In this document: in pieces, positions 1 to 17,323 of the stretch
Layout of the letters: each line of letters begins with the position of its first letter
Position numbering within the stretch: position 1 is the stretch's first letter
Virus record (IMG/VR): IMGVR_UViG_3300047272_000350
Location: 1 to 58,875 of that record
Source of the DNA: a virus
Taxonomy: Duplodnaviria; Heunggongvirae; Uroviricota; Caudoviricetes
DNA length: 58,875 nucleotides
Reading direction: 5' to 3' (one strand)
Made by a program: the position numbers and the translations under genes
Notes under the pieces: model-generated
What the model was told of the DNA's origin: nothing
Seen by the model: the letters and a program-made list of their open reading frames with translations, nothing else
Database searches by the model: none

Positions 1-100
1 AATTAATAATAGTTAAATATGCCCCTCTGTGACTACTTACATCATTATTTTTTTGTTTTTCGCAAAATTCAATTATTGATTCTACTGCTGTTTGTTTCAT
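1..100 (-). CDS. hypothetical protein, 5' part (MKQTAVESIIEFCEK...), runs off window edge
   Basis: Manual translation from ATG at 100; open to position 1; co-oriented with neighbours. Confidence 0.5.
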   Translation of the reverse strand, partial: MKQTAVESIIEFCEKQKNNDVSSHRGAYLTIIN

Positions 101-103
101 ATC

Positions 104-190
104 TTATTTGTTTTTTGATAATATTTCAGATAATATTGGTACTATAATAAAGCATAATATTAATGCTATTGCTAATCCTTGTTCTTTCAT
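104..190 (-). CDS. 28-aa single-TM peptide (MKEQGLAIALILCFIIVPILSEILSKNK)
   Basis: Manual translation; fills the gap between 194..436 and the ATG at 100 with tight spacing. Confidence 0.5.
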   Translation of the reverse strand: MKEQGLAIALILCFIIVPILSEILSKNK

Positions 191-193
191 ATC

Positions 194-436
194 TTATTTG
201 TTTTTAAACCTTTCGTCACTCTCTTTCCAAAACTTGCTTGGCTCTTTGCTCACTAATCTATCTAGCTTTTCTTCAAATGTTTCTAACTCATATAAGCCCA
301 ACTCTTCATCTGCTTTCATCATATTAGCTAACTCTTGCTTGATTTGATTACCATGCCACTCTTTCCATTCATTAAACGAAAACTTTGAGTTTGGGTTTTC
401 GTGTAAGAAATTATTATATTGTCTTTCTAAAGTCAT
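194..436 (-). CDS. hypothetical protein (80 aa)
   Basis: ORF track; operon-like 3-bp spacing. Confidence 0.8.
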   Translation of the reverse strand: MTLERQYNNFLHENPNSKFSFNEWKEWHGNQIKQELANMMKADEELGLYELETFEEKLDRLVSKEPSKFWKESDERFKNK

Positions 437-439
437 AGC

Positions 440-937
440 TTATTTTTTTGTCTGTTCCCAAATTGTTTCTTTCTTAATCTCCCCATCAACAAACCTACTG
501 ATTGTTACCTCTTCCATTTTGTGGTCTGGCTGATTTGTCATTGACACAATATCTGATACAAAAATATCATACTCCTCTTTTGTTGGGATCGCTCCCCCCG
601 AACCTACACCATCCTCGTACCTTATCATAAAGGCACAATAAGGCTCTTCTAACAAAGTTTCTTCTCTTACTACATTATCAATAGCAAAGTCTTTATCTTC
701 ATCTATTTTAAACATATTACCCTCATCATCTCTTTTGATAAAAGAAGACCTATTATAGCCACAATCCGGACAGCTTATATACTCTTCTCCGGTTTTGTAG
801 TAGTAATCATCGAAACAATCTTCGCTCTTACATCGTGGACACTCTATAAAATCTATTACACTTCCCATACTATGATATTGTTGATTGCTTTTCTTTTGAT
901 AATACTGATATACTTTGGTAGATACTTCTTTGAACAT
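440..937 (-). CDS. Zn-ribbon protein (CPRC...CPDC)
   Basis: Two CxxC pairs; acidic C-terminus. Confidence 0.8.
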   Translation of the reverse strand: MFKEVSTKVYQYYQKKSNQQYHSMGSVIDFIECPRCKSEDCFDDYYYKTGEEYISCPDCGYNRSSFIKRDDEGNMFKIDEDKDFAIDNVVREETLLEEPYCAFMIRYEDGVGSGGAIPTKEEYDIFVSDIVSMTNQPDHKMEEVTISRFVDGEIKKETIWEQTKK

Positions 938-1364
938 CTTGATAATTTTGGTAAGATAAGTCTACTAGGTAGAAAAATCTTTTTAGCTGTTCAAGTAAAG
1001 TAATTCTCTCTATATAGTAAGGGTGTGAGTACACAACTTTCTCAGCAGCTGATTGAGAAATCTTCTCTTCACTATGCTTTATTAAGTCCTCTATCGCCTC
1101 GCTTTTTATACGCTTTCTCTGTGCCTCCAAAAACTCAAAGTTCTCACGAAAGCATCTAATTTTGCTGTAATATCCTGCTAGATATACTAAGTATCCATTA
1201 AACCTTCTCTTTAAGTTTTCCAACTCGTCAAGGCTGTCTGTTCCTTTTACATACTCTTGCACCATTTCGTCCATTACCCCAAGGGTTTTCTTTGTTTCTA
1301 GGTAATCTTTCTCGCTGAACTTTACTAAGTCGGATACTCTAAGTATATTATTTGCTACTGCCAT
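870..1364 (-). CDS. helical protein, possibly UvsY-like recombination mediator
   Basis: All-helical 164 aa; EKISQSAAEKVVYSHPYY segment recalls the UvsY family. The CDS is solid, the function tentative. Confidence 0.6.
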   Translation of the reverse strand: MAVANNILRVSDLVKFSEKDYLETKKTLGVMDEMVQEYVKGTDSLDELENLKRRFNGYLVYLAGYYSKIRCFRENFEFLEAQRKRIKSEAIEDLIKHSEEKISQSAAEKVVYSHPYYIERITLLEQLKRFFYLVDLSYQNYQDVQRSIYQSISVLSKEKQSTIS

Positions 1365-1710
1365 GGTTTACTGCTTTATTTATTTTGGTTAATAGGTCTA
1401 ACTCGTTACTAAAAATACTCTCTACTTTTACTTGTCTTCTAGTAGAGGTTTCTGCTTTTGCTATGCTCTTTATACTATCTACAACATTAGACCTTAGTCT
1501 TCGTGTTATAAAAAAGTTATGGTTTGATATTTGTACCCCCTCACAATCTATCAATAAAAAATACTGCAATTCTTCTATGGATAATAAATAGTCCATAGTT
1601 TCGGGATTTATTTCGATAAGGCAATCTTTTCTCAAAGTCATGCTCTTAACTAAATCTACTATACTCTCCTCTTGTTGAGTTAGTACTAATTCTTTTTTAA
1701 ATAATTTCAT
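1348..1710 (-). CDS. hypothetical protein (likely start MKLFKK at 1710; ORF track starts at 1752)
   Basis: ORF track; ATG with A-rich context. Confidence 0.75.
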   Translation of the reverse strand: MKLFKKELVLTQQEESIVDLVKSMTLRKDCLIEINPETMDYLLSIEELQYFLLIDCEGVQISNHNFFITRRLRSNVVDSIKSIAKAETSTRRQVKVESIFSNELDLLTKINKAVNHGSSK

Positions 1711-1867
1711 ATTAACTAATTTAAAATTAAATCTGTCTTTCCAGATTGTCACCTATATTGTTATTTGTACCATTATGATTTTCTCTCCTAAATTCAAAGT
1801 ACAGCGACACGAACATAACAACGACCAACATTACAAGGTTTGTAAGGATTTCAACTGAATTTGGAGA

Positions 1868-2101
1868 TTATATTATATTTACTTTGTTTTCTGTCTCTAT
1901 CCAAACTTTAGCCCCACATGATAGGGGCTTGTTTGGGCTATAAATAACTTTTGCTACAACTCTCCCCTCAACATCTAGTATTTCTACTTCCTTGGCGTAT
2001 TTGTTTTCCTTGTAAGTCTTGCAAGTAATTACTGGGTTTTGAGACCCGTTCTTTTTATTTGCCCTCACAACACTTTGATTGACATGAATTATCGTCTTCA
2101 T
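1868..2101 (-). CDS. conserved phage hypothetical protein (MKTIIHVNQ...KPLSCGAKVWIET)
   Basis: ORF track; sequence type recurrent in phages, from recall. Confidence 0.8.
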   Translation of the reverse strand: MKTIIHVNQSVVRANKKNGSQNPVITCKTYKENKYAKEVEILDVEGRVVAKVIYSPNKPLSCGAKVWIETENKVNII

Positions 2102-2615
2102 AAGAATTTTTATTTAAGTACTCTATTGCTTTTGCTAGAGTTTTTACGTTATCTTTAAATTGACCTAGTGCTAAATTACAACTATTACACAACAGCCCTC
2201 TAACTTTATTAGAAGAATGGCAATGGTCTATATGTGTTGCTTTACCTAAGTGTACTAGTTCTTTAGAGCATATCTCACAACAACCATTTTGTTTTTGAAA
2301 CATAATATTGTAATAATCTAAATCTATATTATACTTCCTTTGCATAATCCTAGACTTTGTACTTTCAATATTATTATTTCTGTATTTTATAGTGGATACG
2401 GAATGTCTTTTTTTACTTTCCTCATTCCTATTTCTACTTTTTAAAATCCTAGTTTTTAACTTATCTTTGTTTAAGTTATCATACTCCTTGTTTTGCTTGT
2501 TGATACAAGATTTACAATAGCACTTAAAACCGGATTTTGTTTGTTTAGATTTGTAAAAATTTTCAAAATTTAATTCTTTTTTCTCCCCACATTTGTGACA
2601 AATTTTAGTTTCCAT
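2055..2615 (-). CDS. endonuclease VII-family (His-Me finger) homing endonuclease
   Basis: N-terminal CxxC...CxxC; C-terminal CEIC...HIDHCHSSNKVRGLLCNSCNLALG motif; likely start METKIC at 2615. Confidence 0.88.
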   Translation of the reverse strand: METKICHKCGEKKELNFENFYKSKQTKSGFKCYCKSCINKQNKEYDNLNKDKLKTRILKSRNRNEESKKRHSVSTIKYRNNNIESTKSRIMQRKYNIDLDYYNIMFQKQNGCCEICSKELVHLGKATHIDHCHSSNKVRGLLCNSCNLALGQFKDNVKTLAKAIEYLNKNSYEDDNSCQSKCCEGK

Positions 2616-2624
2616 ATTATTTAA

Positions 2625-2722
2625 AATAAAAAAGCCTACCAATACTTTTACGGAGGCTCTGACCTCTCCGCTATATATTAATAGGCAAATATCTTTAGTT
2701 TCTATAATGTCAGAGCGAAACT
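2625..2722 (-). ncRNA. candidate structured 5' leader of the endonuclease VII gene
   Basis: Complementary pairs 2656-2663/2709-2716 (8 bp), 2651-2655/2666-2670 and 2634-2638/2682-2686 followed by a U-run. Confidence 0.5.
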
Positions 2723-2728
2723 TGGGGG

Positions 2729-2760
2729 CAAAGATACAACCTTTATTTTAATCTTGCAAA
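2729..2760 (-). promoter_or_regulatory. Bacteroidetes sigma70-type promoter (-33 TTTG, -7 TATCTTTG)
   Basis: Consensus match, 28-bp box spacing. Confidence 0.75.
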
Positions 2761-2775
2761 CTTGTTAAATATTAT

Positions 2776-2838
2776 TTATCTTGATGTGTTTGAATATATA
2801 TAAATAAACACTATTATTACTACTATTATTAAGGGCAT
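2776..2838 (-). CDS. 20-aa hydrophobic peptide (MPLIIVVIIVFIYIYSNTSR)
   Basis: Manual translation; AGT-ATG context; abuts the upstream small ORF. Confidence 0.4.
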   Translation of the reverse strand: MPLIIVVIIVFIYIYSNTSR

Positions 2839-2839
2839 A

Positions 2840-2905
2840 CTAAAATCTTTTTAAACTATTTAACCAATACATTGCTACTATCAACAAAATTAACCATAAC
2901 ACCAT
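2840..2905 (-). CDS. 21-aa hydrophobic peptide (MVLWLILLIVAMYWLNSLKRF)
   Basis: Manual translation; AGT-ATG context; 1 bp from the upstream stop. Confidence 0.4.
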   Translation of the reverse strand: MVLWLILLIVAMYWLNSLKRF

Positions 2906-2906
2906 A

Positions 2907-3137
2907 CTATATCAAATTTTGTTCTACCAACACCTCTAACACCAACCCTTTTATAAAGTCTATGTTTGCTTGGGATTGAATTTCTTGATTTGCAATACCT
3001 TTTGTGAAGTCCTCTAGTTGAGAGCCGTCCATTTGCATCTTCATATGGGTTAAACTTAATAGAGCCTTTCCTGTTATTGTGGCTGTTTGAGTTACCATAC
3101 TTATTTTTATATCGTTCTTTAAAAAATTGTCTCCCAT
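2907..3137 (-). CDS. hypothetical protein (76 aa)
   Basis: ORF track; tight packing. Confidence 0.75.
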   Translation of the reverse strand: MGDNFLKNDIKISMVTQTATITGKALLSLTHMKMQMDGSQLEDFTKGIANQEIQSQANIDFIKGLVLEVLVEQNLI

Positions 3138-3140
3138 ATC

Positions 3141-3344
3141 TTACTTTTTATTTTTGTTTTTTGCTGACTTTGCCATGCTAGTTTTATGCGTGGTCTCTAG
3201 CCCTAACTTAACCTCTCTACTTGGAGTACTGTCTAAAACTTTTTTGTCAAATCTTAGAGTTACTACATTTGGGTTCAAAAACATATTAAACCCAGTGTTA
3301 AGGGTAATATCTATCTCTACTAATTTTGTTTTTCTAGCTTTCAT
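3141..3344 (-). CDS. basic hypothetical protein (67 aa)
   Basis: ORF track. Confidence 0.7.
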   Translation of the reverse strand: MKARKTKLVEIDITLNTGFNMFLNPNVVTLRFDKKVLDSTPSREVKLGLETTHKTSMAKSAKNKNKK

Positions 3345-3564
3345 TTTTAAATGTATAAGTTTTTACAAAGTCATTGTATTCGTTGTATTCGTCTATGATA
3401 TACCCCTTACTATCGTGAGAAAATATCCATTGTCTGCCCTTCTTTTGATTAATATCTACCAAAGTATCAATCACTTCGTTTCTCTGCTCTACAGAGCATT
3501 TTTCGTCCCCTAACAAAAAGTCATTAACGCTTACAATATTAATAAGTAAGTTATCTTTACTCAT
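3334..3564 (-). CDS. hypothetical protein (76 aa)
   Basis: ORF track; overlapping coupling. Confidence 0.75.
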   Translation of the reverse strand: MSKDNLLINIVSVNDFLLGDEKCSVEQRNEVIDTLVDINQKKGRQWIFSHDSKGYIIDEYNEYNDFVKTYTFKNES

Positions 3565-3781
3565 ATTCTGCTCTTTTTAAGTCCCACAAAAAGTCATACC
3601 AATAATCGTATCTTTCATTAACATACTCTTGTGCCTCTTCTGTGTGAGAAGTCTCATCATCTAGGTCTAGTATGATACCATTTGGAAATCTGTGTTTTCC
3701 TCCCTCATCTCCGTATGAATTTATTAAGTCTCTGTCTGCAAGTATTGTTGCAACCTCTATTATATTTATTCTAATATCCAT
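3557..3781 (-). CDS. acidic hypothetical protein (74 aa)
   Basis: ORF track. Confidence 0.75.
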   Translation of the reverse strand: MDIRINIIEVATILADRDLINSYGDEGGKHRFPNGIILDLDDETSHTEEAQEYVNERYDYWYDFLWDLKRAEYE

Positions 3782-3785
3782 AATC

Positions 3786-3950
3786 TTATTTTAAATTAAA
3801 ATCTGCTAACATTCTATATGTTTCCCCATAAGAATAACCAACCCCTAGTTCTAATGCTAGGGACTTGGCTTTCTCTTTTGTTAAACCTTTCTTTACTACT
3901 TTACCAAAGGTATTTGACTTCAAGTTATACTCGAATACAATATAGGTCAT
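3786..3950 (-). CDS. hypothetical protein (54 aa, MTYIVFEYNLK...)
   Basis: Manual translation; ATGA overlap with the upstream stop. Confidence 0.65.
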   Translation of the reverse strand: MTYIVFEYNLKSNTFGKVVKKGLTKEKAKSLALELGVGYSYGETYRMLADFNLK

Positions 3951-4138
3951 AGTTTACTCGCTAGATAGCTTAAGCCAATTACAACTAAAACTACTAACAC
4001 TACTATTGCAAGGGTAAGACTTAATCCCCACAAAGATACTATTAAGGCTGATGCCATTAATACATTGTAGTTACCCTCTGTCTGTATGACATTAAGTATC
4101 ACAGCGACACCTAATATAATTGCTATTGCTAACATCAT
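3947..4138 (-). CDS. small two-TM membrane protein (63 aa)
   Basis: Two hydrophobic stretches. Confidence 0.7.
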   Translation of the reverse strand: MMLAIAIILGVAVILNVIQTEGNYNVLMASALIVSLWGLSLTLAIVVLVVLVVIGLSYLASKL

Positions 4139-4308
4139 AAGCTATTCTTTTTTAATTGTTCATTATATTTTTTCATAAAGTCTGTATCCTCATCGGGCAG
4201 TTCCATATCTAACTCTCTGTATTGCTCTACTATGTAACTTTCTTCATTACACCATTCACAACCATAGACACCTATTCTACTACCACAATCGGGACAATCC
4301 TTAGCCAT
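4135..4308 (-). CDS. small Zn-finger protein (57 aa, MAKDCPDCG...GCEWCNEE)
   Basis: Manual translation; TAATG coupling with the upstream gene; two CxxC. Confidence 0.7.
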   Translation of the reverse strand: MAKDCPDCGSRIGVYGCEWCNEESYIVEQYRELDMELPDEDTDFMKKYNEQLKKNSL

Positions 4309-4535
4309 TAAATCTCTATGTATTGGACACCCTCTTGAATTAACTCATTTAAGATTTCGATGTCTTTGTTAAACAATTCGTCTTCGTTCTCTTGCTCTAA
4401 AACTTCTACCACAAAATCAATAGGGTATTGATGACTATCTTCATCGTTAGAAGACATACTTGGTGTGATATTTGAGAAGATACTTCTCTTTGCATGTTTA
4501 GATATGCTTGGGTTATACTCTACTATAATTCTCAT
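4308..4535 (-). CDS. acidic hypothetical protein (75 aa)
   Basis: ORF track. Confidence 0.75.
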   Translation of the reverse strand: MRIIVEYNPSISKHAKRSIFSNITPSMSSNDEDSHQYPIDFVVEVLEQENEDELFNKDIEILNELIQEGVQYIEI

Positions 4536-4732
4536 ACTTCTTCAATTTCTTCCATTAATACTATACTTCTTAATACACTATTTGTCTGTTCGTCATACAA
4601 ATCTTCTGAGACAAAAGAGATATACTCAATATCACTATCGGGATTGTTTCTGTAAAAAACCTCGATACTTTCCAAGTCATGTCCTTGGTCTTGTAACTCT
4701 AGTAAAGAGTTTAATAGTTCTTGTGCGTTCAT
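4532..4732 (-). CDS. acidic hypothetical protein (start MNAQELL at 4732)
   Basis: ATG preceded by the recurrent TAACTAGT motif. Confidence 0.75.
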   Translation of the reverse strand: MNAQELLNSLLELQDQGHDLESIEVFYRNNPDSDIEYISFVSEDLYDEQTNSVLRSIVLMEEIEEV

Positions 4733-4742
4733 ACTAGTTAGT

Positions 4743-5117
4743 TTAAATTGAATTTCTTTTTTGTGTATCTGTTCCGTCTGCATTACTCTGCCACTCATCA
4801 TAATATAACTCTACTTCCGGATACCTCATTGAGTAATCGTATATAAAGTCTAAGGCTTGTTTCTTTGTATCAAATGAGGCAATAGTTTCTGTACCCTCTT
4901 CTTCATTAATACGGAATACTTCGTACCATGTCATAAGCCAATGTAAAGGTTCTTGGTCTTCTTCATCACAAGCAATTTCTATATTGCTAAGTATCACACC
5001 TAAATTCTCAAATCCTTCGATAGGTGTTATTAATAAGTCTTCCGGCAGTTGCTCTAGCAATCTTGCCACGTCTTGTCTAACAAAGGCTAACCTTTGCTTT
5101 GCAGTTAAATTTTTCAT
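4743..5117 (-). CDS. acidic hypothetical protein (124 aa)
   Basis: ORF track. Confidence 0.8.
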   Translation of the reverse strand: MKNLTAKQRLAFVRQDVARLLEQLPEDLLITPIEGFENLGVILSNIEIACDEEDQEPLHWLMTWYEVFRINEEEGTETIASFDTKKQALDFIYDYSMRYPEVELYYDEWQSNADGTDTQKRNSI

Positions 5118-5124
5118 AGCTTTA

Positions 5125-5397
5125 CTATTTTATTGTTGCACCTAATACTTTCTCTGAATGTAGCATTAAGGCTTGTGTTAAAGCAATTATACCCTCATCT
5201 GATAAGCCAATTATAGTGTTCTTGATTAACTCATCTTCTGATAAAAAGTGCCTTGTTCCCTTTTCTTTACCAACCAAAGAAGTAAGTCCTTTTATGTGTA
5301 TTACATTGTTACCTCTTTTGTTTTTAGATACTGAGATACTTCTAGTATCGTTTTTTACTACTACGTTTTTTTCTTCAACTTTAATTTCTAAATTCAT
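5125..5397 (-). CDS. hypothetical protein (90 aa)
   Basis: ORF track; directly downstream of a promoter. Confidence 0.8.
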   Translation of the reverse strand: MNLEIKVEEKNVVVKNDTRSISVSKNKRGNNVIHIKGLTSLVGKEKGTRHFLSEDELIKNTIIGLSDEGIIALTQALMLHSEKVLGATIK

Positions 5398-5420
5398 AAT
5401 TTTGTTTTTTAATTTTTTTA

Positions 5421-5451
5421 CAAAGGTAATTCTTTTTTTCTGATTACCAAA
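5421..5451 (-). promoter_or_regulatory. sigma70-type promoter (-7 TACCTTTG)
   Basis: TTTG-N-TACCTTTG with 27-bp spacing and an A-tract upstream. Confidence 0.75.
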
Positions 5452-5462
5452 ACTTTTTTTAA

Positions 5463-5720
5463 TTATTCTTCTATTAAGTCTCCAATTAGAAAATAACCCT
5501 CTTGGAAACTAGGCTCGTACTCTTTATGGTCGGCAGTCATATCATCTAGTTCATAAAACGTGCTATAACAAGCCAATTTTAACTCGTGGCACACGCATAT
5601 AACCGGTACTTCATCGCCTTTCAAAGGGTGTTCTACAAAGACTATCTCTTGCCCAACAGAATTTACCATTCTACCATACTCTGTTGGGTTGTGTACCATT
5701 AATTTTTCGTAGTTCAACAT
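5463..5720 (-). CDS. hypothetical protein (85 aa)
   Basis: ORF track. Confidence 0.8.
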   Translation of the reverse strand: MLNYEKLMVHNPTEYGRMVNSVGQEIVFVEHPLKGDEVPVICVCHELKLACYSTFYELDDMTADHKEYEPSFQEGYFLIGDLIEE

Positions 5721-5722
5721 AG

Positions 5723-5947
5723 TTAATCTAAAACTGACATTACATTACAGAAGAAGTCTTCATCTACAAAATACGTTCCCTCGTAGTATGATACTACCAC
5801 TTCCATTGGGATTTCATCTTCGGTTATCTCTTCTCCCTCTTCTAACCCCATAACTTCTTCCAAAGAGCCATCGTCTTCGTGTTGCATATACCAACGAGTT
5901 CTTAACTCTTCTAGTTCGTTTGTGCTTAATTCGTGTACTGATTTCAT
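5723..5947 (-). CDS. very acidic small protein (74 aa), DNA-mimic candidate
   Basis: About 22 D/E versus 3 K/R. Confidence 0.75.
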   Translation of the reverse strand: MKSVHELSTNELEELRTRWYMQHEDDGSLEEVMGLEEGEEITEDEIPMEVVVSYYEGTYFVDEDFFCNVMSVLD

Positions 5948-5951
5948 AATG

Positions 5952-6158
5952 TTAATCGTTTTTAGTTATAAATTCATCTAGGGTTTCTTCCCAATCTAAT
6001 TCTGTCCAATTCTCTCTGTACTCTTTGTCATACTTTTGTATAAACTTATCTGCTAATTCCATTGCTTTATCAATCTTCGAGAAGAAACTCCCATTGATTT
6101 TAAACTCTAGTAAATCGTAGTACATAATGTATCCGGTAACAACTGCTAACTCTTCCAC
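5952..6158 (-). CDS. hypothetical protein (68 aa)
   Basis: ORF track; GTG start. Confidence 0.7.
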   Translation of the reverse strand: MEELAVVTGYIMYYDLLEFKINGSFFSKIDKAMELADKFIQKYDKEYRENWTELDWEETLDEFITKND

Positions 6159-6159
6159 G

Positions 6160-6384
6160 CTATTTAAAATTTATTTCCTCAAAGGAAGTTACTACAATAT
6201 CCAAACTATCATTACCACCGGTATCAACAGAGTGCTTTAGGTCATTTTCACTCAAACCATAATAGAAAATCTCGTTATCTAAATCTTCATCTTCTTCTAC
6301 ATCGTCATACTCTTTGACAATAAAACCCTCAAACTCGGACTTGTCATCTTTCCAATATCCGTTTATGCTAAAATACTTGCTCAT
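6160..6384 (-). CDS. very acidic small protein (74 aa)
   Basis: About 21 D/E. Confidence 0.75.
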   Translation of the reverse strand: MSKYFSINGYWKDDKSEFEGFIVKEYDDVEEDEDLDNEIFYYGLSENDLKHSVDTGGNDSLDIVVTSFEEINFK

Positions 6385-6390
6385 AATACC

Positions 6391-6810
6391 TTATTTTGAG
6401 ATTAATAAATGTTCTACTGCAATAGGCTCACGATTGTACTTTAGGTTCTTCATTCCTAGAAGTCTCTCATTAACTCTATCAACTACAATTCTTCTATCAT
6501 CTTCCGTTTCTATGTAATCGTTACATAGTGTTGAAGACACACCCTTAAAACTATCCGAGAAGTCTGTTATGTTAAAGTCTCGTTCAATACACTCTGCTGT
6601 GAGTTCTAAATACCTATGATGTAGGTAACCTATTTTGTCATAGAAAAATTTAACATGTCCCGTACCCAAAGTAAACTTTTTAGGTATGTCTTTAACAACT
6701 GCCTTACCACTTTTTATAGCGTTAGGTATTCTTAATAGTTCAATTCTTTCTTTGATTAAATGTGCATCGCAAAGTTCTACTGCTCTAACACCAACTGAAA
6801 TTCTTGTCAT
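6391..6810 (-). CDS. denV: pyrimidine-dimer DNA glycosylase (T4 endonuclease V family)
   Basis: N-terminal MTRI, L.D.HL..E..EL.RI, and FTLGTGHVKFFYDK motifs. Confidence 0.92.
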   Translation of the reverse strand: MTRISVGVRAVELCDAHLIKERIELLRIPNAIKSGKAVVKDIPKKFTLGTGHVKFFYDKIGYLHHRYLELTAECIERDFNITDFSDSFKGVSSTLCNDYIETEDDRRIVVDRVNERLLGMKNLKYNREPIAVEHLLISK

Positions 6811-8659: not shown

Positions 8660-8660
8660 A

Positions 8661-10428: not shown

Positions 10429-10644
10429 TTAGTTTGTCAATAGATTGATTAATAATTGTTTTGTTACTTCTATGTTCCCTCGATACTTCTCTATGGTTAG
10501 GTAGTCTAACCCCTCTTGATTGAATGTATCTTCTAGTACTTCTTGTTCTTCTTTACTTCCAGCATGATATACTTCTTCTATATCGTGTATGATTGCTTTT
10601 CTATTTAGAAACTCTATTGTTCCTACTACTATTGTATGTTTCAT
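10429..10644 (-). CDS. hypothetical protein (71 aa)
   Basis: ORF track. Confidence 0.75.
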   Translation of the reverse strand: MKHTIVVGTIEFLNRKAIIHDIEEVYHAGSKEEQEVLEDTFNQEGLDYLTIEKYRGNIEVTKQLLINLLTN

Positions 10645-10645
10645 C

Positions 10646-10975
10646 TTACTGCTCTATTAGATAATAAATTTGTCTAGCTTTGGCTGTTTTTTCTTCCCCC
10701 TCGAACTCACTCAAAATATCTATTGGTGTTGAGAAGTCTTGCTCTACATCGGGGTATTCTGCCAACCCTAGTATAACTTGGTTGTTATCTAGTACTGCAT
10801 GTACTAAAAATGGGTGCTTGTTTACATCGTCCTTGTAATATACTATACTATCTGTATTCATATCTTTTAGTTTGTGGCTTTTGTGGGGGAATAAAAATGT
10901 ACTAAAAACCCCCCCACTACTTGCCTTGTTTATATTAGTTAATCTGTTTCCAACTTCCGTTCCACTTCTCCCCAT
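10646..10975 (-). CDS. hypothetical protein (start may be internal, MNTDSIV)
   Basis: ORF track. Confidence 0.65.
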   Translation of the reverse strand: MGRSGTEVGNRLTNINKASSGGVFSTFLFPHKSHKLKDMNTDSIVYYKDDVNKHPFLVHAVLDNNQVILGLAEYPDVEQDFSTPIDILSEFEGEEKTAKARQIYYLIEQ

Positions 10976-11231
10976 TTAAATACCACTCAAAGTTCTTCTG
11001 CTGAATGTGTACGTTAGGTAAGCCGTTTAATCTTTCCTTTGTAGTGTTGCTATCCCAACCTGCATTGGATATACGCATTACTCCCCCTCTATCGTGTTCT
11101 AGGGTTGCAATTAAGTTACCAAACAAGTACATTTTAGATACTCCTTGTTCTGTTACTACTCTAGTGTTGTTGAATGTTGCGTTCCCACCATTACGGAAAC
11201 AAGTTACTGCTTTTTCTGTTACAATTTTCAT
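10935..11231 (-). CDS. conserved phage hypothetical protein (LFGNLIA...GWDSNTTKERLNGL)
   Basis: ORF track; sequence type recurrent in phages, from recall. Confidence 0.85.
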   Translation of the reverse strand: MKIVTEKAVTCFRNGGNATFNNTRVVTEQGVSKMYLFGNLIATLEHDRGGVMRISNAGWDSNTTKERLNGLPNVHIQQKNFEWYLNGEKWNGSWKQIN

Positions 11232-11266
11232 ATTGTTTAATTTAAAGTTTGGCTTAATTGCCTTTA

Positions 11267-11298
11267 CAAATATACTAATTAATTTTTTACTATCCTAA
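11267..11298 (-). promoter_or_regulatory. sigma70-type promoter (-7 TATATTTG, -33 TTAG)
   Basis: Exact -7 box; variant -33 box. Confidence 0.65.
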
Positions 11299-11359
11299 TT
11301 TTTTTTAATCTTTTTTATTTCCCCCCTCGCATACTACTACAAAGGGGGTAATAAACCTA

Positions 11360-11947
11360 CTATCTATACTCTACTTCTGTATTCTCTAGCAACTCCTCTA
11401 ATTGTTCTTGGGTAATATCCCCCAAATTTTCCGAATTGATATAGTCTATCATACCATTGGTTAAAAAGTCTGTACCATAAAAACCCCAACAACTATCCAC
11501 TTCATTATCCCACTCGTCTACTATCCTAAAACCATACACTTCTCCCTCTACATAATAGTTATACGTTTCTACTTCTGCATCTAGCAACTTGATTGCTTTC
11601 TCCCTTGTCTTTTGGGTAATAATCTTCCCCCCAAAATTGTCTAAAATAGTTTTCTTATTAACTACTATAAACCCTATCTGCCCACTATCCCAACGGCAAC
11701 TAAACGGACTAGTGCTTATACTTACTGCTGAATGGTCGTATAGGTACAAAGGTAGAATGATTGCACCCTTGCCTTCATCTGTTAGGATTGCTTTCTCCAT
11801 TTCTTCCCACCCCGAATAATCATCTGCATTGTAATTGTGTTTATCCCCCAAATCATAACGACCATGGAAACAAATCATCTTTCCGAAATTATCCCACTCT
11901 CTAGGACTTTCTGCACTGCTATCGTGTATTATTTTTAATGTGTTCAT
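11360..11947 (-). CDS. conserved phage early protein (SPREWDN...LPLYLYDHS...WDSGQIGF)
   Basis: ORF track; conserved-looking motifs; function unknown. Confidence 0.85.
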   Translation of the reverse strand: MNTLKIIHDSSAESPREWDNFGKMICFHGRYDLGDKHNYNADDYSGWEEMEKAILTDEGKGAIILPLYLYDHSAVSISTSPFSCRWDSGQIGFIVVNKKTILDNFGGKIITQKTREKAIKLLDAEVETYNYYVEGEVYGFRIVDEWDNEVDSCWGFYGTDFLTNGMIDYINSENLGDITQEQLEELLENTEVEYR

Positions 11948-11957
11948 ATTAGTTAAT

Positions 11958-12119
11958 TTATTGGTTAATACTTGTTTCTTGTACGCTTTCTGTAACGTAC
12001 ATATTACTTTCTTTTGCTTTCTGTTCTAGCATTGGCAAACAAGCCATATATAAATCTTCACTGCTAAAGATTGCTACTAGTTCTGCATGTGTTCCACTTT
12101 CAAAATAAACGTAAATCAT
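11958..12119 (-). CDS. hypothetical protein (53 aa, MIYVYFESGTHAELVAIF...)
   Basis: Manual translation; first ORF after a promoter. Confidence 0.7.
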   Translation of the reverse strand: MIYVYFESGTHAELVAIFSSEDLYMACLPMLEQKAKESNMYVTESVQETSINQ

Positions 12120-12144
12120 AATGTTGTTGTTTTAAATTGTTATA

Positions 12145-12195
12145 CAAATATAATACTTATTTTTGATACTGCAAAACTTTTTTGCAATTATTTTT
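12145..12195 (-). promoter_or_regulatory. sigma70-type promoter (-7 TATATTTG) with UP-like element
   Basis: Boxes 27 bp apart. Confidence 0.8.
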
Positions 12196-12538
12196 AAAAT
12201 CTTTCAAAGTAGTTAATATTAAAGTCAAACTTCTCCCCCTTATAGTTATGGTTGAATACCATATAACCTACTCCATTAAGCATATACGCTATTGCATCTT
12301 GGTTGAATTTTCTACATAAACCTTTCAATAATGAATTAAGTAGTTTATCGTTGTTCTGTTTCAATTCTATTCTAGCAACATACGTTTCTTCACTTCCCCA
12401 ATCCCCTACTGCATTAACTAATTTAAAGTCGTGCTTACCTAAAAGTCCTTGGATAGTGTTATCAATATCTGTTACATTATTAGGTTGGTTATCTGTATTC
12501 CTTAATAACCCCATATTTAATTCAAGTGTAGTTTTCAT
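12194..12538 (-). CDS. hypothetical protein (114 aa)
   Basis: ORF track. Confidence 0.8.
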   Translation of the reverse strand: MKTTLELNMGLLRNTDNQPNNVTDIDNTIQGLLGKHDFKLVNAVGDWGSEETYVARIELKQNNDKLLNSLLKGLCRKFNQDAIAYMLNGVGYMVFNHNYKGEKFDFNINYFERF

Positions 12539-12579
12539 ATTATATAATTTAAAGTAACTGCTTTGTTACAATCACAAGG

Positions 12580-12611
12580 CAAATATACGGCACTAGTTTT
12601 GATTATGCAAA
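12580..12611 (-). promoter_or_regulatory. sigma70-type promoter (-7 TATATTTG)
   Basis: Boxes 28 bp apart. Confidence 0.8.
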
Positions 12612-12666
12612 CTTTTTTTAATAAACTTATCAACATAATTTTGTTAATAACTTTCTACTTTTTTTC

Positions 12667-12697
12667 TTGACTAGTACAAAATTTTGTCGTATCTTTG
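12667..12697 (+). promoter_or_regulatory. plus-strand sigma70-type promoter (TTG...TATCTTTG) with no downstream ORF
   Basis: TTG at 12667-69 and TATCTTTG at 12690-97. Confidence 0.65.
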
Positions 12698-12703
12698 TAT
12701 TAG

Positions 12704-12900
12704 AAAATTGCCAGAGTTATGCAATTCGGGGGTTCGTGTTTTTTTCCACACGCATAGGGTAGACTCCAACGCACCCCCCACCCACCCCCCGATTTCGCTA
12801 TAAGGCAGGACGGAGTCTACTCTTTCGGTTCTATTTCAAAACCCCACCCTTTGTCAAATCCTTATCCCTATGTATTCTATCTATCCATATCGTTCCCTCT
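12704..12900. ncRNA. GC-rich structured non-coding element between convergent promoters
   Basis: 11-bp stem 12757-67/12812-22; potential pseudoknot 12728-37/12769-78; 5' hairpin AATTGC...GCAATT; no credible ORF. Confidence 0.5.
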
Positions 12901-12910
12901 TATTGTTATA

Positions 12911-12942
12911 CAAATATACGACAAAAAAATAACACTACCAAA
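12911..12942 (-). promoter_or_regulatory. sigma70-type promoter (-7 TATATTTG)
   Basis: Boxes 28 bp apart; fires into the non-coding element. Confidence 0.75.
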
Positions 12943-12959
12943 CGATAGTGCTATTATTT

Positions 12960-13139
12960 TTAAACTTTTTTTCTTAATTTTAATTCCTTGAGTACACTAG
13001 CAATTAAGTCTTGTACCTCGAACTCGCTTTGGTCGTCTGTATCCGTACAATCGGGTACATACCCCAATTCAATTAGCCTATTGGTTATAGTTATACCAAT
13101 ATCTTGTCTCTCGTCCTTGTCTAATTTTCTAGTTTTCAT
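12960..13139 (-). CDS. hypothetical protein (start MKTRKLDK at 13139)
   Basis: TAACTAAT-ATG context. Confidence 0.7.
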   Translation of the reverse strand: MKTRKLDKDERQDIGITITNRLIELGYVPDCTDTDDQSEFEVQDLIASVLKELKLRKKV

Positions 13140-13149
13140 ATTAGTTAGT

Positions 13150-13368
13150 TTAATACATTTCAAATTGTGGATAGTTTTTATCTAAGTATTTGTTTAGTCT
13201 ATCCTCGTTTCTAAACCTCTTTACCCCCAACTTATCCGACCACGAATTTTGATAGGTATACTCTTTGACTATCGCTATGTATCCCCCTTTGAATACTTTG
13301 CCTTCATCGGCTAGTAATAACGTGTTATCCGTTAGTACGTTTTCTCTTAAGATAAATTCTCTTGCCAT
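13150..13368 (-). CDS. hypothetical protein (start MAREFILR at 13368)
   Basis: CAACTAAT-ATG context downstream of a promoter. Confidence 0.75.
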   Translation of the reverse strand: MAREFILRENVLTDNTLLLADEGKVFKGGYIAIVKEYTYQNSWSDKLGVKRFRNEDRLNKYLDKNYPQFEMY

Positions 13369-13403
13369 ATTAGTTGATTTAAAGTTTAGCAATATTGCCA
13401 ATA

Positions 13404-13435
13404 CAAATATACAAATAAGTTTTTAATCTACCAAA
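13404..13435 (-). promoter_or_regulatory. sigma70-type promoter (-7 TATATTTG)
   Basis: Boxes 28 bp apart. Confidence 0.8.
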
Positions 13436-13446
13436 TTTTTTGGCAT

Positions 13447-13476
13447 AAAAAAAGGGGAAACTTTCGTCCCCCCTAA
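13447..13476 (-). terminator. intrinsic terminator
   Basis: GGGGGGAC-GAAA-GTTTCCCC followed by U7. Confidence 0.7.
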
Positions 13477-13491
13477 TTTACATTAGTTAAT

Positions 13492-13665
13492 TCATACTGA
13501 CCTTTTATCTAATATAAGCGATACCGCCCCTATACAACCGAATAATAAAAATGTGTAAAGGCTTAACATTAATTGATTATGTCCGTCAGCTACAAAGATA
13601 CTGATAAACCCTATGACTTGTCCCACAAGTGCAATAGATGAAATAATAAGATTTGACTTTTTCAT
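13492..13665 (-). CDS. small two-TM membrane protein (57 aa, MKKSNLIISSIALVG...)
   Basis: ATG at 13665; two hydrophobic helices. Confidence 0.7.
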   Translation of the reverse strand: MKKSNLIISSIALVGQVIGFISIFVADGHNQLMLSLYTFLLFGCIGAVSLILDKRSV

Positions 13666-13675
13666 ACTAGATAAT

Positions 13676-13804
13676 TTAAACGTGTCTATGTGTTGACCAA
13701 TATCTTCTTTGTTGCTTGCATCTACTAGCACAACTAGAGACTAACATAGATGTCATTAAAATAAGATAGATAATAAAAACTGCATAACTTTTTCGATTTT
13801 TCAT
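13676..13804 (-). CDS. 42-aa putative lipoprotein (MKNRKSYAVFIIYLILMTSMLVSS-C-ASRCKQQRRYWSTHRHV)
   Basis: Manual translation; basic N-region, hydrophobic core, lipobox-like VSSC. Confidence 0.6.
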   Translation of the reverse strand: MKNRKSYAVFIIYLILMTSMLVSSCASRCKQQRRYWSTHRHV

Positions 13805-13824
13805 AATGATTGATTTTATATTAA

Positions 13825-13983
13825 TTAATTTAAACATACTTTTCCGTATAGGTCTATCCCATACACTTGATATAAACTAGTGTATAGATTAGCTAGAGTA
13901 ACCCCTAACAATTCTCCTATAATTTTTTTGTCCTTGATGATAACGGCTTTGAAACCAAAGTCCAATAATTCTATTTGTACCAT
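13825..13983 (-). CDS. hypothetical protein (52 aa)
   Basis: Manual translation. Confidence 0.55.
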   Translation of the reverse strand: MVQIELLDFGFKAVIIKDKKIIGELLGVTLANLYTSLYQVYGIDLYGKVCLN

Positions 13984-14071
13984 AGGTATTATTTTTTTAA
14001 TGATCTTAATACTATTATTGCTATAATAGTTATTGTAGCATATATGCCCATATAATTAGTTGATTAGATTG

Positions 14072-14103
14072 CAAAGATATAAAAAAGATTTGATATAAAC
14101 AAA
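14072..14103 (-). promoter_or_regulatory. sigma70-type promoter (-7 TATCTTTG)
   Basis: Boxes 28 bp apart. Confidence 0.7.
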
Positions 14104-14132
14104 AAAATAAGGGGGATTTTATACCCCCCTAT
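14101..14132 (-). terminator. intrinsic terminator after the DUF932-like gene
   Basis: AGGGGGG-TATAAAAT-CCCCCTT followed by a U-rich tail. Confidence 0.7.
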
Positions 14133-14137
14133 TTAGA

Positions 14138-15019
14138 TTAGTAAACCATTTCTAAGGCTACTTTTTGTGCTAAGTCGTTTAGCTTAAGACCACCACCTAC
14201 TAGTAGGTAATCATTTCTATCATCGGTTCTAGCAACGTGGTTGGTGTAATGGGTAATACCATTAACTAGTCCCCATAGTGTAGAGCCGGTTCTACTAAAC
14301 TCTAGTGCAATACTTTCTTGAACATTGTTCAAAATATTTTGCTTAGCCGTACCTAACTCGCTACGAATAGCCTCGTTGTAGCCTATTGTCTTCATCAAAA
14401 ACTCGTCAACTTTAGATTGGTTAACTTGAACTTTATCTAGCTTTCTAAGATAAGCCTCGAAGTCGTTGATTTGGTCTGTAGCCTTAGCAACATCATAACA
14501 AAGTGATGAAGCCTTTCCAACATTACCTTTGGTATTCTTGAAAGAAACAGCGAACTCAGTACGCCACGCTTTCATTCCATTGGCACAAACCATTCTGTAA
14601 CAGCTAATAAATAAGCTAGTCTTAGTCAAGCCGTCAAAACCTGTAGATAAGTTAAGTTTAACTATCATTTCGTCTTGCTCGCCTTTCAAGTTTTTGAAGC
14701 CGATAGTCTTGATAGGTGCTTCAAACACTATCTTTTTACCGCCTTTCAATTCCATGTATTTAACATCTTGCATCTTAGCATCAGTATCATATAAGCAATT
14801 CTCAAACTCGTCAAACAACAGCTTAGGTTGTGTTGGTGTAAAGTCTTTACCTACAACTCCTAGAGGTATACCGCCTTTTTTCTTGTATGTGCCAAAACTA
14901 TCGGGGTTAATAAACTTCTTATTTGTGGTTACTAGCGGTACTTTTACCACATCAAATAATTGTTTTTTGATAGCTAAGATGTTTTTGTTTCCGTTCTGTA
15001 GGTCTTTTAAAATTTCCAT
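14138..15019 (-). CDS. DUF932/DUF945-family phage protein
   Basis: STGFDG...RMVCANG and TLWGLVNGITHYTNH motifs. Confidence 0.8.
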   Translation of the reverse strand: MEILKDLQNGNKNILAIKKQLFDVVKVPLVTTNKKFINPDSFGTYKKKGGIPLGVVGKDFTPTQPKLLFDEFENCLYDTDAKMQDVKYMELKGGKKIVFEAPIKTIGFKNLKGEQDEMIVKLNLSTGFDGLTKTSLFISCYRMVCANGMKAWRTEFAVSFKNTKGNVGKASSLCYDVAKATDQINDFEAYLRKLDKVQVNQSKVDEFLMKTIGYNEAIRSELGTAKQNILNNVQESIALEFSRTGSTLWGLVNGITHYTNHVARTDDRNDYLLVGGGLKLNDLAQKVALEMVY

Positions 15020-15146
15020 GTTTGTAAGTATTAATTAGTTAGTATAAAAATCTAGTTAGAAAATAAAGTGCCGCAATAATACAAGCGATTATTTGAGGTC
15101 TTTGGTGCTGTAAAAAGTATTTTAAATATTTCATGATAAAGATATT

Positions 15147-15168
15147 AAAGCCCCCTTTCGAGGGCTTG
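15147..15168 (-). terminator. probable terminator hairpin
   Basis: AAGCCC...GGGCTT hairpin after the stop of 15174..15503; weak U tail. Confidence 0.45.
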
Positions 15169-15173
15169 ATTAA

Positions 15174-15503
15174 TTAATTTGCAACTTGGTACTCGTAACT
15201 TCTTTTAGATAACATTATCTTACCGCCACTAGTGTAGTAAGGTCTGTTATGCTCGTCAAACTCTACCGCCTTGATGTCACAATCAATGATATAGCCTTGA
15301 CTTTCTAAGTAAGTAGTCAAACAACTAGGGCAACCTATTGTTTCATGGTTCTGAATGTTAGCCCAATTACTAGCTAACATTGGAGTTCCGCAAAGGGTTA
15401 CACCATTAAAACTACCACTTTCAGCGATATGTGTTTCATTACTCCAAACCACACCTTTATTACCATAGTGATAAAAAGGATTTTTTAAATTACTTGCTTT
15501 CAT
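15174..15503 (-). CDS. hypothetical Zn-binding protein; first gene of the leftward early block
   Basis: H...TLCG...CPSC. Confidence 0.75.
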   Translation of the reverse strand: MKASNLKNPFYHYGNKGVVWSNETHIAESGSFNGVTLCGTPMLASNWANIQNHETIGCPSCLTTYLESQGYIIDCDIKAVEFDEHNRPYYTSGGKIMLSKRSYEYQVAN

Positions 15504-15605
15504 AAGCCATAAGTATTAAAAGATAGCAACCACTTCTGTAGGTAGGTTGCAACACCTTAAGGACAAAATTTCAATGAACAAATAACTACGTCATTAATTC
15601 TTTCA

Positions 15606-15636
15606 CAAAGATACAATTAAGTTTTGAATAAACTAA
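15606..15636 (-). promoter_or_regulatory. sigma70-type promoter (-7 TATCTTTG)
   Basis: Exact -7 box; TTAG at the -33 position. Confidence 0.6.
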
Positions 15637-15659
15637 TATAAAGTTAATTATTTTTACAT

Positions 15660-16190
15660 GGTGCATGAAATTTATAATCATTCTAAATAAGGTATTATAA
15701 TACTATATAGTACATGGTAGCAATACAGCCCCAAAATCAATTAGAGGCGATTTGCGACACGATAATATCAATTAGGTATCTTAGTGCCACTTAGTAGGAG
15801 AAAGTCGCTTAAACAAAAAATACTAGTAAAATCGTACCCCTGTAATTGAAACTTAATACACAAATATTTTTGTATAAAGTTTTGAACAATTATATTATTT
15901 ATAACTAGTCTAGATAAGCTAGGCTAAAAACTAGCTAGGCACCTACTACACTACTTTAGTACTATAGAGTAACCTTATAGCTTAGTAGTATACTATAGAC
16001 AAAAAGAATAAAAAAAGCTAGGAAAATCCAAAACTCCTAGGCTTCGATTTAAGGCAAAAACTTTTTTGTATAGTACTATAGGGGGGGTAGGGTAAATCTC
16101 CCAAAAATTTCGGGGGCTTTTTCCTATGGTGGATAGGGTGTCCCCCACATAAAATTCATTTTTATAAGGTGGGGGGGGTGTTAAAAAAAG
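15660..16190. other. long non-coding locus with palindromes and G-tracts; candidate genome terminus/packaging region
   Basis: No ORF; palindromes at 15670-88, 15692-703, 15701-12 and 16069-80; G7 at 16081 and G8 at 16171; coincides with the GATC boundary. Confidence 0.45.
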
Positions 16191-16198
16191 TTAATATA

Positions 16199-16230
16199 TT
16201 TGGTAAGTATATTTATTATTTGTAACTTTG
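16199..16230 (+). promoter_or_regulatory. sigma70-type promoter (-7 TAACTTTG) for the HNH gene
   Basis: Boxes 28 bp apart. Confidence 0.75.
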
Positions 16231-16258
16231 CACTTTATAACAAGTAAAAAAAGTAATT

Positions 16259-17323
16259 ATGAAAAATACTATTAAAGATGTTACTGGTGAGGTATGGGGA
16301 GAGTTGACAATAGTAGGTCTACTCCCTTCCAAAAAGATGGGCGGTAGTTATTATAAGCAGGTGTGGTGCAAGTGCTCTTGTGGTAATACTAGATCTGCAG
16401 GGTATAAAGATCTAAAAAAAGGTAAGCTTAAGTCATGTGGGTGCCTAGTAAAAAAATCTGAAGTGTTACCAGGAGATATTTATAATTACTGGACAATTAT
16501 AGAGGAGGTATCTCCTTATAAGAATAGTAATAATAATTATATGAGAAAGTTTTATTGTAAGTGTGTATGTGGTAAAGAAAAAGAGTTAACTCTTAACTCT
16601 ATGTCTACTGGAAACTCAAAATCTTGTGGGTGTATGACTGAGTATAAATCAGGTTATAAGTTAGTTGATGAAAGTTCAGAAATATTACCTTTAGATATTA
16701 ATAAGGTTAATAAGCGTAACTTAGGTAACTGGAAGATTATAAAGGAGCTATCAAAATGGAGAAATGAAGATTTTTCAATAGAAAGATTGCTGCAAATACA
16801 ATGTAGTTGTGGTGTAACAGTTAATAGAAAACTTTCTGGGATTGGACAAAGTAAGAGTTGTAGAAAATGCTCTGATTCTATTAGGAAAGCTCTTATTCCT
16901 GAAAAAGATCGTGCTTTAAGAACTCGTCTAAGGGGCAGATTTGGAAATATGATTGCTAGGTGCCATAACGAAAATAATAAAAATTATAAATTTTATGGTG
17001 GAAGGGGTATTACAGTCTGTGAAGAGTGGAGGTATAATTTTAAGGCTTTTTACGATTGGTGTATTCTTAATAAACCGGAAGCCTATGATTTCTGCGATTT
17101 GGAAATAGATAGAAAAGACAATGATAGAGGCTATTCTCCAGACAACTGCCAATTAATAACAAAATCAGAAAACACACTAAAAAATAAATTTTTTAATATG
17201 ACTCTAGAAGATGTTTCTTTTATTCGATCTGATAAATTTGATATGAGTATGTGTAGTGATTATAAGTGCTCTAAAGAATCTATAATAAGAATTAGGAACT
17301 ACGAAATATTTAAAGATATATAA
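16259..17323 (+). CDS. HNH-type homing endonuclease with three repeated Cys-rich N-terminal domains
   Basis: Repeats of G.WT+...C.C.CG...SCGC; C-terminal YGGRGITVC.EW...IDRKDNDRGYSPDNC. Confidence 0.85.
   Translation: MKNTIKDVTGEVWGELTIVGLLPSKKMGGSYYKQVWCKCSCGNTRSAGYKDLKKGKLKSCGCLVKKSEVLPGDIYNYWTIIEEVSPYKNSNNNYMRKFYCKCVCGKEKELTLNSMSTGNSKSCGCMTEYKSGYKLVDESSEILPLDINKVNKRNLGNWKIIKELSKWRNEDFSIERLLQIQCSCGVTVNRKLSGIGQSKSCRKCSDSIRKALIPEKDRALRTRLRGRFGNMIARCHNENNKNYKFYGGRGITVCEEWRYNFKAFYDWCILNKPEAYDFCDLEIDRKDNDRGYSPDNCQLITKSENTLKNKFFNMTLEDVSFIRSDKFDMSMCSDYKCSKESIIRIRNYEIFKDI

Follow-up and report, generated by a model that had tools for sequence, protein, structure and literature searches.

Depletion of short restriction-type sites from the early block of a Cellulophaga phi4:1-like phage genome, in a profile consistent with polar genome entry

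Introduction

Why should one segment of a phage genome lack short words that the remainder carries at ordinary density? The question is raised by the IMG/VR record IMGVR_UViG_3300047272_000350, a linear contig of 122,875 b, of which bases 1-58875 were analysed as one stretch of DNA (here, the window). The window begins with a block of small, leftward-read genes, the early block, in which the tetranucleotide GATC is nearly absent, and the block ends at a non-coding locus of ~750 bp. A sequence-only reading of the window had proposed that this segment enters the cell first, that it has been purged of sites for a GATC-recognising host defence, and that a gene or a modification expressed from it protects the GATC-rich remainder. 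That restriction presses hardest on the DNA injected first is established for T5-like phages and, recently, for T7-like phages, from few motifs and work in culture.

Results

A dozen or more short words are depleted from the early block

Counting bore out the scarcity of GATC that had been noted by eye. Positions 1-16390 hold two sites (587 and 14002), compared with 19 in 16391-20940, 110 in the remaining window and 221 in the remaining genome. The number expected in the block is 42 at the window rate, 34 at the genome rate (Poisson p = 1.4e-12) and 37 under a maximal-order Markov model. The longest GATC-free gap spans 13,415 b, the second-longest in the genome only 3,588 b, and every other 16.39-kb window of the genome holds at least 13 sites.

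The depletion extends well beyond GATC. CCAG/CTGG and CAGG/CCTG, which had looked rarer on the left before they were counted, occur seven times each in the block, against about 65-66 and about 65 expected; ACAGT occurs once (37 expected), and further words are listed in Table 1. The depleted set comprises GATC, GGCC, CCWG/CWGG (including CCWGG), ACWGT, GANTC, GCWGC, TCWGA, CCATC, CCTTC and GAGCT, with reductions of 10-30-fold for many of them. The purge suggested for a GATC-recognising defence is real and region-specific; its targets are a dozen or more short sites, not one.

Table 1. Words depleted from the early block: counts in the block, and counts in its 42 coding sequences compared with synonymous-codon shuffles
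Word	Observed in block	Expected in block	Observed in coding sequences	Expected from codon shuffle
GATC	see text	see text	1	25.3 +/- 4.0 (minimum 15 in 300)
GGCC	0	12		
CCWGG	0	9		
ACWGT	1	37	0	12
GANTC	3	about 38	0	25
GCWGC	1	19		
TCWGA	11	38		
CCATC	4	30		
GAAGC	4	28		
CCTTC	5	25	3	21
AGCTC	0	22		
GAGCT			0	11
AAGCTT	0	12		
CCAG	see text	see text	5	29
CAGG	see text	see text	4	28

Both orientations of these words are depleted, as expected if double-stranded DNA, and not RNA, is what is recognised; avoidance at the RNA level was rejected on this ground. The targets are discrete. Tabulation of flanking bases showed depletion in all CCWG/CWGG contexts and in the palindromes ACWGT, GCWGC and TCWGA, but not in ACWGA, ACWGC or GCWGA. 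A greedy search for degenerate motifs over-merged the words (MCWGK, GRAGS), and explicit flank tables were used instead. Many of the words correspond to well-known targets of Type II enzymes (REBASE): GATC of MboI/Sau3AI, GGCC of HaeIII, GANTC of HinfI, CCWGG of EcoRII, GCWGC of TseI, ACNGT of HpyCH4III, CCATC of BccI, CCTTC of HpyAV and AGCT of AluI. We know of no prototype enzyme for CCWG.

A second tier of avoidance is genome-wide. Neither GCGC nor CGCG occurs anywhere in the 122,875 b, where a Markov model predicts 16 and 6 and base composition alone predicts 98 of each, and both words are nearly absent from the relatives G001, G002 and G004 described below.

Protein sequence and codon usage do not account for the depletion

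The scarcity of sites in a block of small genes might follow from codon or amino-acid composition, a possibility that the sequence-only reading had itself raised along with that of similar depletion in unrelated late regions. We permuted synonymous codons among the 42 coding sequences of the block in 300 shuffles, which kept both the proteins and the codon usage of the block, and the depletion survived this control (Table 1) as it did the Markov model. Gene sets of the same size drawn from the rest of the genome lay at their shuffle expectation. CAG and CTG are used as in-frame codons equally in the block and elsewhere; the missing words sit at codon junctions and in codon choices (fewer TCA, TCT, GCT and GGA). 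When all 4- and 5-mers were scanned without bias in windows of 12 kb, the block stood out, and no late region showed comparable depletion: the only other peaks were of A-rich words in tail-fibre genes, an amino-acid effect. Recoding of stop codons in the block was also considered and rejected, as reading TAG, TGA or TAA as sense gave no merged long frames. We conclude that the depletion is not due to composition, codon bias or amino-acid bias.

The GC content and codon usage of the block are close to those found elsewhere in the genome, with slight shifts in codon usage (more GGG, CCC, AGT and NCG; fewer TCA, TCT, GCT and GGA).

Some words are in excess. CTAG is enriched in 1-16258 (94 occurrences versus about 50 expected); this word lies one transition from CCAG/CTGG and is likely an escape product of their purging. 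The block also carries 31 of the genome's 84 runs of at least five G or C, concentrated at 10000-16258. In that interval GGG and CCC codons are used 2-8 times more than elsewhere, words containing CpG and the word CCGG are enriched, and the relatives show enrichment of the same G/C-run type at the equivalent relative position. This G/C excess looks as though "safe" G+C had made up for the many mixed words that were forbidden.

The depletion has one sharp edge and one graded edge

The depletion ends abruptly on its right. For composite sites, the maximum-likelihood change point was placed at 16258 to within 20 bp. The block's last composite site lies at 15839 and the next one, beyond the block, at 16284; the switch therefore falls between 15842 and 16284, and the non-coding locus is on the depleted side. 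Density drops from about 15 to about 1 site per kb within 450 bp. The switch had been assigned to the non-coding locus, and these flanking sites place it in the right-hand part of that locus.

To follow the depletion in the other direction, the map must be closed. In the closest relative, G001, the two ends of the contig map 233 bp apart, so that the genome is essentially complete and its map circular. Once the circle is closed, the replication arm (Table 2) adjoins the early block, and the two make up a single long arm, transcribed leftward from the non-coding locus. We computed an amino-acid-controlled ratio of observed to expected sites (O/E) for a composite of five motifs. By distance from the edge, O/E was 0.06, 0.04 and 0.23 over 0-18 kb, 0.62, 0.61 and 0.74 over 18-36 kb, in the replication arm, and 0.9-1.0 beyond 36 kb. 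The bin that adjoins the edge on its far side, in the region beginning at 17324, had an O/E of 1.32, the highest site density in the genome. The circular profile is thus a sawtooth, with ~5% of expectation for 16 kb, 60-75% for the next 20 kb and ~100% thereafter. The zone had been described as sharply GATC-free, which holds at the 16258 edge; its far edge is graded, GATC, CWGG and ACWGT remaining partly depleted in the replication arm and more strongly so towards the block. The profile has three levels (about 0.05, 0.6-0.75 and 1.0), against the two stages proposed earlier.

Within the replication arm, site density climbs with distance from the edge (rho 0.64, p = 3e-4). GATC, CWGG and ACWGT form a ramp, and GANTC, GGCC and CCATC a step. 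The rise with distance was found in all four of the closest genomes (the present one, G000, with G001, G002 and G004; rho 0.41-0.77). These genomes are related and their sawtooths are not independent replicates; at 70-89% identity, their sites are largely non-homologous.

The depleted block persists in relatives despite gene turnover

We recovered related IMG/VR contigs with DUF932 and GroEL queries and compared whole sequences of G001 (128 kb), G002 (131 kb), G004 (124 kb, complete) and the more distant G005 (119 kb). Each of the four has a depleted block, about 16-20 kb long. The homologue of the non-coding locus marks its start in G001, G002 and G004, and the sawtooth recurs in these three genomes.

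The genes within the block turn over heavily, and DUF932 alone is common to all five genomes. At the DNA level, the share of the block that can be aligned with G002 or G004 is just 10-30%, whereas the structural arm aligns over its full length. Some purges are lineage-specific: CATG in G002, G004 and G005, CTAG in G005, and CTAAG and GAGAC in G002. G002 also has no GATC or GGCC in all of its 131 kb. These comparisons show that selection continues on whatever DNA occupies the block position. In csAssE-Sib, a gut phage whose structural proteins are among the nearest to those of the present phage, there is no such block.

A conserved non-coding locus marks the edge

The non-coding locus contains G/C runs (G7 and G8) and has homologues at the block edge in G001-G004; none was found in G005. 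Across G000-G004 it is better conserved than the flanking early genes, with long invariant stretches that include CATAGGGGGG. It matched no Rfam family, and sigma-70 promoter scores at the boundary were no higher than those of the shuffles. The locus is presumed to be the start of early transcription and, from the shape of the profile, is provisionally predicted to be the leading genome end; its candidate roles are those of a packaging or terminus signal, of an origin and of a non-coding RNA locus.

At the boundary itself, immediately on the site-rich side, stands a gene for a free-standing HNH endonuclease. It is present in G002 and absent from G001, where no homologous DNA is found at 88689-88778 and ~90 bp stand in its place. 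The gene is probably a mobile insertion of the homing endonuclease type. Its insertion was rejected as the cause of the edge, which is equally sharp in G001 without it.

Early genes and the DUF932 protein

The early block (1-16258 with the non-coding locus) has about 45 tightly packed open reading frames (ORFs) of 46-293 aa in an operon-like arrangement of early type, and continues past position 1 into the right end of the genome. Among ~30 early ORFs, matches were found to DUF932, endonuclease VII (EndoVII), Pyr_excise (a pyrimidine-dimer glycosylase), Kyano_Gp96 and, below threshold, a Lar-like zinc ribbon. No Pfam match in the early ORFs suggests the A1 or A2 proteins of T5, at which no dedicated search was aimed.

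The DUF932 protein, encoded by the second early gene, is the only early product kept in all five clade genomes (tblastn, 41-87%). The family is typical of mobile elements. An AF2 model of the protein (pLDDT 88.8) had no fold match in the PDB and no Foldseek match below an E value of 5e-3; the best VIA match had a Z of 5.1 over 80 residues. No function is suggested by the titles and abstracts of papers that mention the family. We infer only that the protein is a candidate host-takeover or anti-defence factor.

Genome layout and affiliation

The layout is given in Table 2. The structural arm includes four virion proteins of 1.6-2.4 kaa, and other encoded functions include an ATP-dependent ligase, a PD-(D/E)XK nuclease, exonucleases, a dNMP kinase and ribonucleotide reductase (RNR). 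Temporal classes (early, middle and late) are assumed from gene content. ARAGORN called no tRNA in the window; a tRNA-like match to Rfam RF00005 at 18754-18823 (minus strand) scored 25.6 bits, below the gathering score of 29, and was the sole Rfam match in 12-19.5 kb.

Table 2. Features of the window and of the adjoining genome
Feature	Position	Strand	Basis or remark
Early block	1-15503	-	about 45 small ORFs
Residual GATC site, first of two in block	587-590	.	
Residual GATC site, second of two in block	14002-14005	.	
DUF932 protein, second early gene	14138-15019	-	293 aa, Pfam PF06067 at 3e-18
First ORF of block	15174-15503	-	109 aa, conserved in G001, G002, G004
Non-coding locus	15504-16258	.	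sequence
HNH endonuclease gene	16259-17323	+	PHROG 374 at 3e-52
Site-rich far side: small ORFs, GroEL-like chaperonin, RecA, SF2 helicase	17324-27300	-	GroEL/RecA/helicase genes at 17.6-26.8 kb
Late/structural arm: large terminase subunit (TerL), portal, major capsid protein (MCP), tail fibre	27.3-94 kb, in window 27301-58875	+	normal site density
Replication genes: primase, PolA, DnaB, ligase, RNR, nucleases	94051-122875, beyond window	-	

The nearest relatives of TerL, portal and MCP are the Cellulophaga phages phi4:1 and phi17:2 (35-47% identity) together with csAssE-Sib. For TerL, identity is 35-36% to phi4:1 and phi17:2 and 37.5% to csAssE-Sib, and just 21-24% to crAss-like phages. MCP matches were limited to the phi4:1 group, csAssE-Sib, an unannotated bacteriophage fragment from human faeces (MT838541.1) and a Leptolyngbya phage. 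Phage phi4:1 is classified as Lightbulbvirus, outside Crassvirales. By these protein comparisons the phage belongs to a Cellulophaga phi4:1 (Lightbulbvirus)-like group; the earlier description of it as crAss-like is true in a loose sense only, its TerL being distant from those of Crassvirales. From the phi4:1-type relatives we infer a Bacteroidota host.

Discussion

A block that enters first

Any cut kills the phage. For avoidance confined to one segment to be of use, the remaining DNA must be unexposed or invulnerable when it meets the enzymes. We favour, at a probability of roughly 0.6, the reading that the early block is the leading, first-exposed segment in a polar, staged entry of the genome. 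It would then be the part that meets host restriction enzymes before phage counter-measures exist. The packaged genome would be linear with a fixed end at or beside the non-coding locus; this end would enter first, and the early operon would be transcribed away from it. Early products would go on to disarm restriction, with DUF932 as leading candidate and none of them from a known anti-restriction family, or the remaining DNA would simply arrive later. The farther a site lies from the leading end, the weaker the selection against it would be, by the logic of first-step transfer (FST) in T5 or of entry in T7 and N4.

A knife-edge on one side and a ramp on the other is the shape expected of a linear genome with its leading end at the edge and slow one-way entry, and the polar sawtooth in four genomes is a prediction of a model in which the block enters first. 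The graded profile looks more like progressive entry of the T7/N4 type, or like three temporal classes, than like a clean two-step process. In T7 and N4, transcription helps to pull the DNA in. It is possible, and we put it forward only tentatively, that the sawtooth is a fossil record of slow, polar, multi-stage internalisation (~16 kb pre-early, ~20 kb middle, then the rest) and that DUF932 or its neighbours form a new broad-spectrum inhibitor of Type II restriction.

Several observations weigh against staged entry. The tiers of the ramp match the gene classes (early, middle and late), which confounds expression time with entry order. The ends of related contigs, which might have marked a terminus, scatter through the block (about 10-16.8 kb) and are uninformative, and the terminal repeat ("DTR") of G004 was rejected as a genome end, being a 123-bp assembly overlap. 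No known anti-restriction family was found among ~30 early ORFs. The DFDxD motif is absent from the nine largest proteins and the four giant proteins have no PDB sequence match, which still leaves room for a divergent virion RNA polymerase. Among more distant phages, phi4:1 shows only a dip of 2-3-fold, over 108-118 kb, the region to which one early-gene homologue maps, and phi14:2 lacks a block of this kind. The crAss-like phage crAss001 (MH675552; 102.7 kb) avoids sites genome-wide, with GATC 1, GGCC 0, GCGC 0, CGCG 1, CTAG 2 and ACGT 1. It shuns the same kinds of words as the present phage, in which avoidance is mostly confined to 13% of the genome.

Other explanations of the sawtooth

The coincidence of the depletion tiers with the early, middle and late gene blocks is also what would be seen if the whole genome entered together and only the block had to stay intact early on, for the sake of expression, the remainder being shielded by co-ejected virion proteins, or its cuts being tolerated and then repaired by phage ligase, RecA and nucleases after early proteins had blocked the host enzymes. 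The very large virion proteins could be such ejected cargo, the genome encodes ligase, RecA, the PD-(D/E)XK nuclease and exonucleases, and the BASEL study suggests that ligation contributes to the restriction resistance of T5 (PMC8594841). A double-strand cut, however, exposes a linear genome to host exonucleases, and ~220 GATC and ~850 CWGG sites would be hard to tolerate; a shield should extend to the early block as well; and the one-sided knife-edge with a distance ramp inside a single transcription arm points to a polar process. We regard this explanation as rather unlikely. Less likely again is that the phage avoids sites of its own early nuclease or nucleases, which would degrade host DNA at short sites while the block, being the phage DNA then present, would have to lack them, as in Davison's model of A1 as a restriction enzyme of T5 (10.1101/866236). 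The endonuclease VII and pyrimidine-dimer glycosylase homologues in the block and the HNH nuclease at its edge would supply such activities, but a dozen unrelated motifs, some of which differ between close relatives, better fit a changing population of host restriction-modification (R-M) systems, and the HNH gene is mobile and absent from G001, where the pattern is unchanged.

The remaining explanations we consider very improbable. Early regions are mosaic and hypervariable, and the limited alignment of the block with G002 or G004 could be taken to mean that it is a module recently imported from a phage of another host, or an assembly chimera, that keeps the avoidance of its donor. A depleted block is found, however, in five independently assembled genomes with differing genes and partly differing motifs, its edge lies at a conserved locus, its GC content and codon usage are near those seen elsewhere in the genome, and the graded continuation runs into conserved replication genes that cannot have been imported. 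Neither a chimera nor a one-off import is compatible with a block retained despite gene turnover and lineage-specific motifs. Protection of the remainder by a phage-made DNA modification, which would render sites outside the block harmless and which the sequence-only reading had entertained, fares no better. The dNMP kinase and ribonucleotide reductase might serve it, yet virion DNA would be modified along its full length and the block would need no purge, and the genome-wide avoidance of GCGC and CGCG argues for cleavable DNA. Six-frame searches with PF02086, PF01555 and PF00145 found no methyltransferase in G000, G001, G002 or the complete relative G004, nor did searches of G005 with PF02086 and PF00145; the control genomes gave matches. 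With no Dam, N4/N6 or C5 enzyme found (the search for non-methyl modifications was not exhaustive), and with modified virion DNA protecting the block as well, protection by a phage methylase is unlikely. Least plausible of all is that small, highly expressed genes carry a bias in codons, amino acids or mutation that is unrelated to restriction. The slight shift in codon usage within the block would accord with it, but shuffles that keep proteins and codon usage still predict 10-25 times more sites, the depletion is strand-symmetric and specific to palindromes and particular flanks, and such codon shifts are what avoidance of the depleted words would itself produce.

Relation to known systems

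Staged entry has its closest precedent in T5 and BF23. The R-M sensitivity of T5-like phages depends only on sites in the first-step-transfer DNA (PMC10644984; 10.1101/866236), and by our own count all six EcoRI sites of T5 lie outside its terminal repeat. The likeness would lie in end-proximal, small pre-early genes that must be free of sites, in sites elsewhere that are harmless, and in a long, conserved, repeat-rich non-coding locus at the block edge; the T5 FST region also has a distinct word composition. The differences are several. The T5 region is ~8-10 kb within a long terminal repeat, with a discrete injection stop and the A1/A2 proteins, whereas the present block is 16-20 kb with a graded far edge; depletion in T5 is mostly 2-4-fold, against 10-30-fold here for many Type II-like 4-5-mers; and the present phage is an unrelated, phi4:1-like Bacteroidota phage. 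In T5 itself (NC_005859, 1-10219), non-palindromic words are depleted 3-20-fold, including AGAG/GAGA, GAACC (1 vs 20) and CAGAG (0 vs 16), a hint that the paradigm phage, too, avoids Type III-like sites regionally.

Only motifs within the region injected first count in Murciavirus, and early anti-defence genes are located in that region; the same authors predicted such sub-genomic selection, and its absence in headful packagers (PMC12455610). Entry in T7, Murciavirus and N4 is polar and slow, and the graded profile and the transcription away from the edge seen here fit entry paced from one end. The evidence in T7 and Murciavirus consists of single Type I motifs or Ocr, whereas entry in the present clade is a prediction from sequence, and the T7 early region is almost without word depletion in the same test. 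Conjugative plasmids, according to work cited in PMC12455610, have leading regions depleted of R-M targets and enriched in anti-defence genes; their transfer machinery is different and entry is single-stranded, so that the likeness lies only in the logic of selection. Our literature search found no report of regional avoidance in phages of Bacteroidota or in crAss-related ones. That a leading or early segment should avoid restriction sites is a phenomenon of a known kind; the clade, the strength and the graded polar profile are new.

The signal yields predictions from the genome sequence: a packaged genome end, a direction of entry, and a set of ~45 genes that act before host restriction is neutralised. 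It nominates the DUF932 protein and the 750-bp non-coding locus for experiment, and it offers a genome-scan statistic with which metagenomic phages can be searched for leading ends and for sets of early anti-defence genes. If the sawtooth is indeed a fossil record of entry, sequence alone would suffice to tell, for uncultured phages, which end leads and in what order the genome enters.

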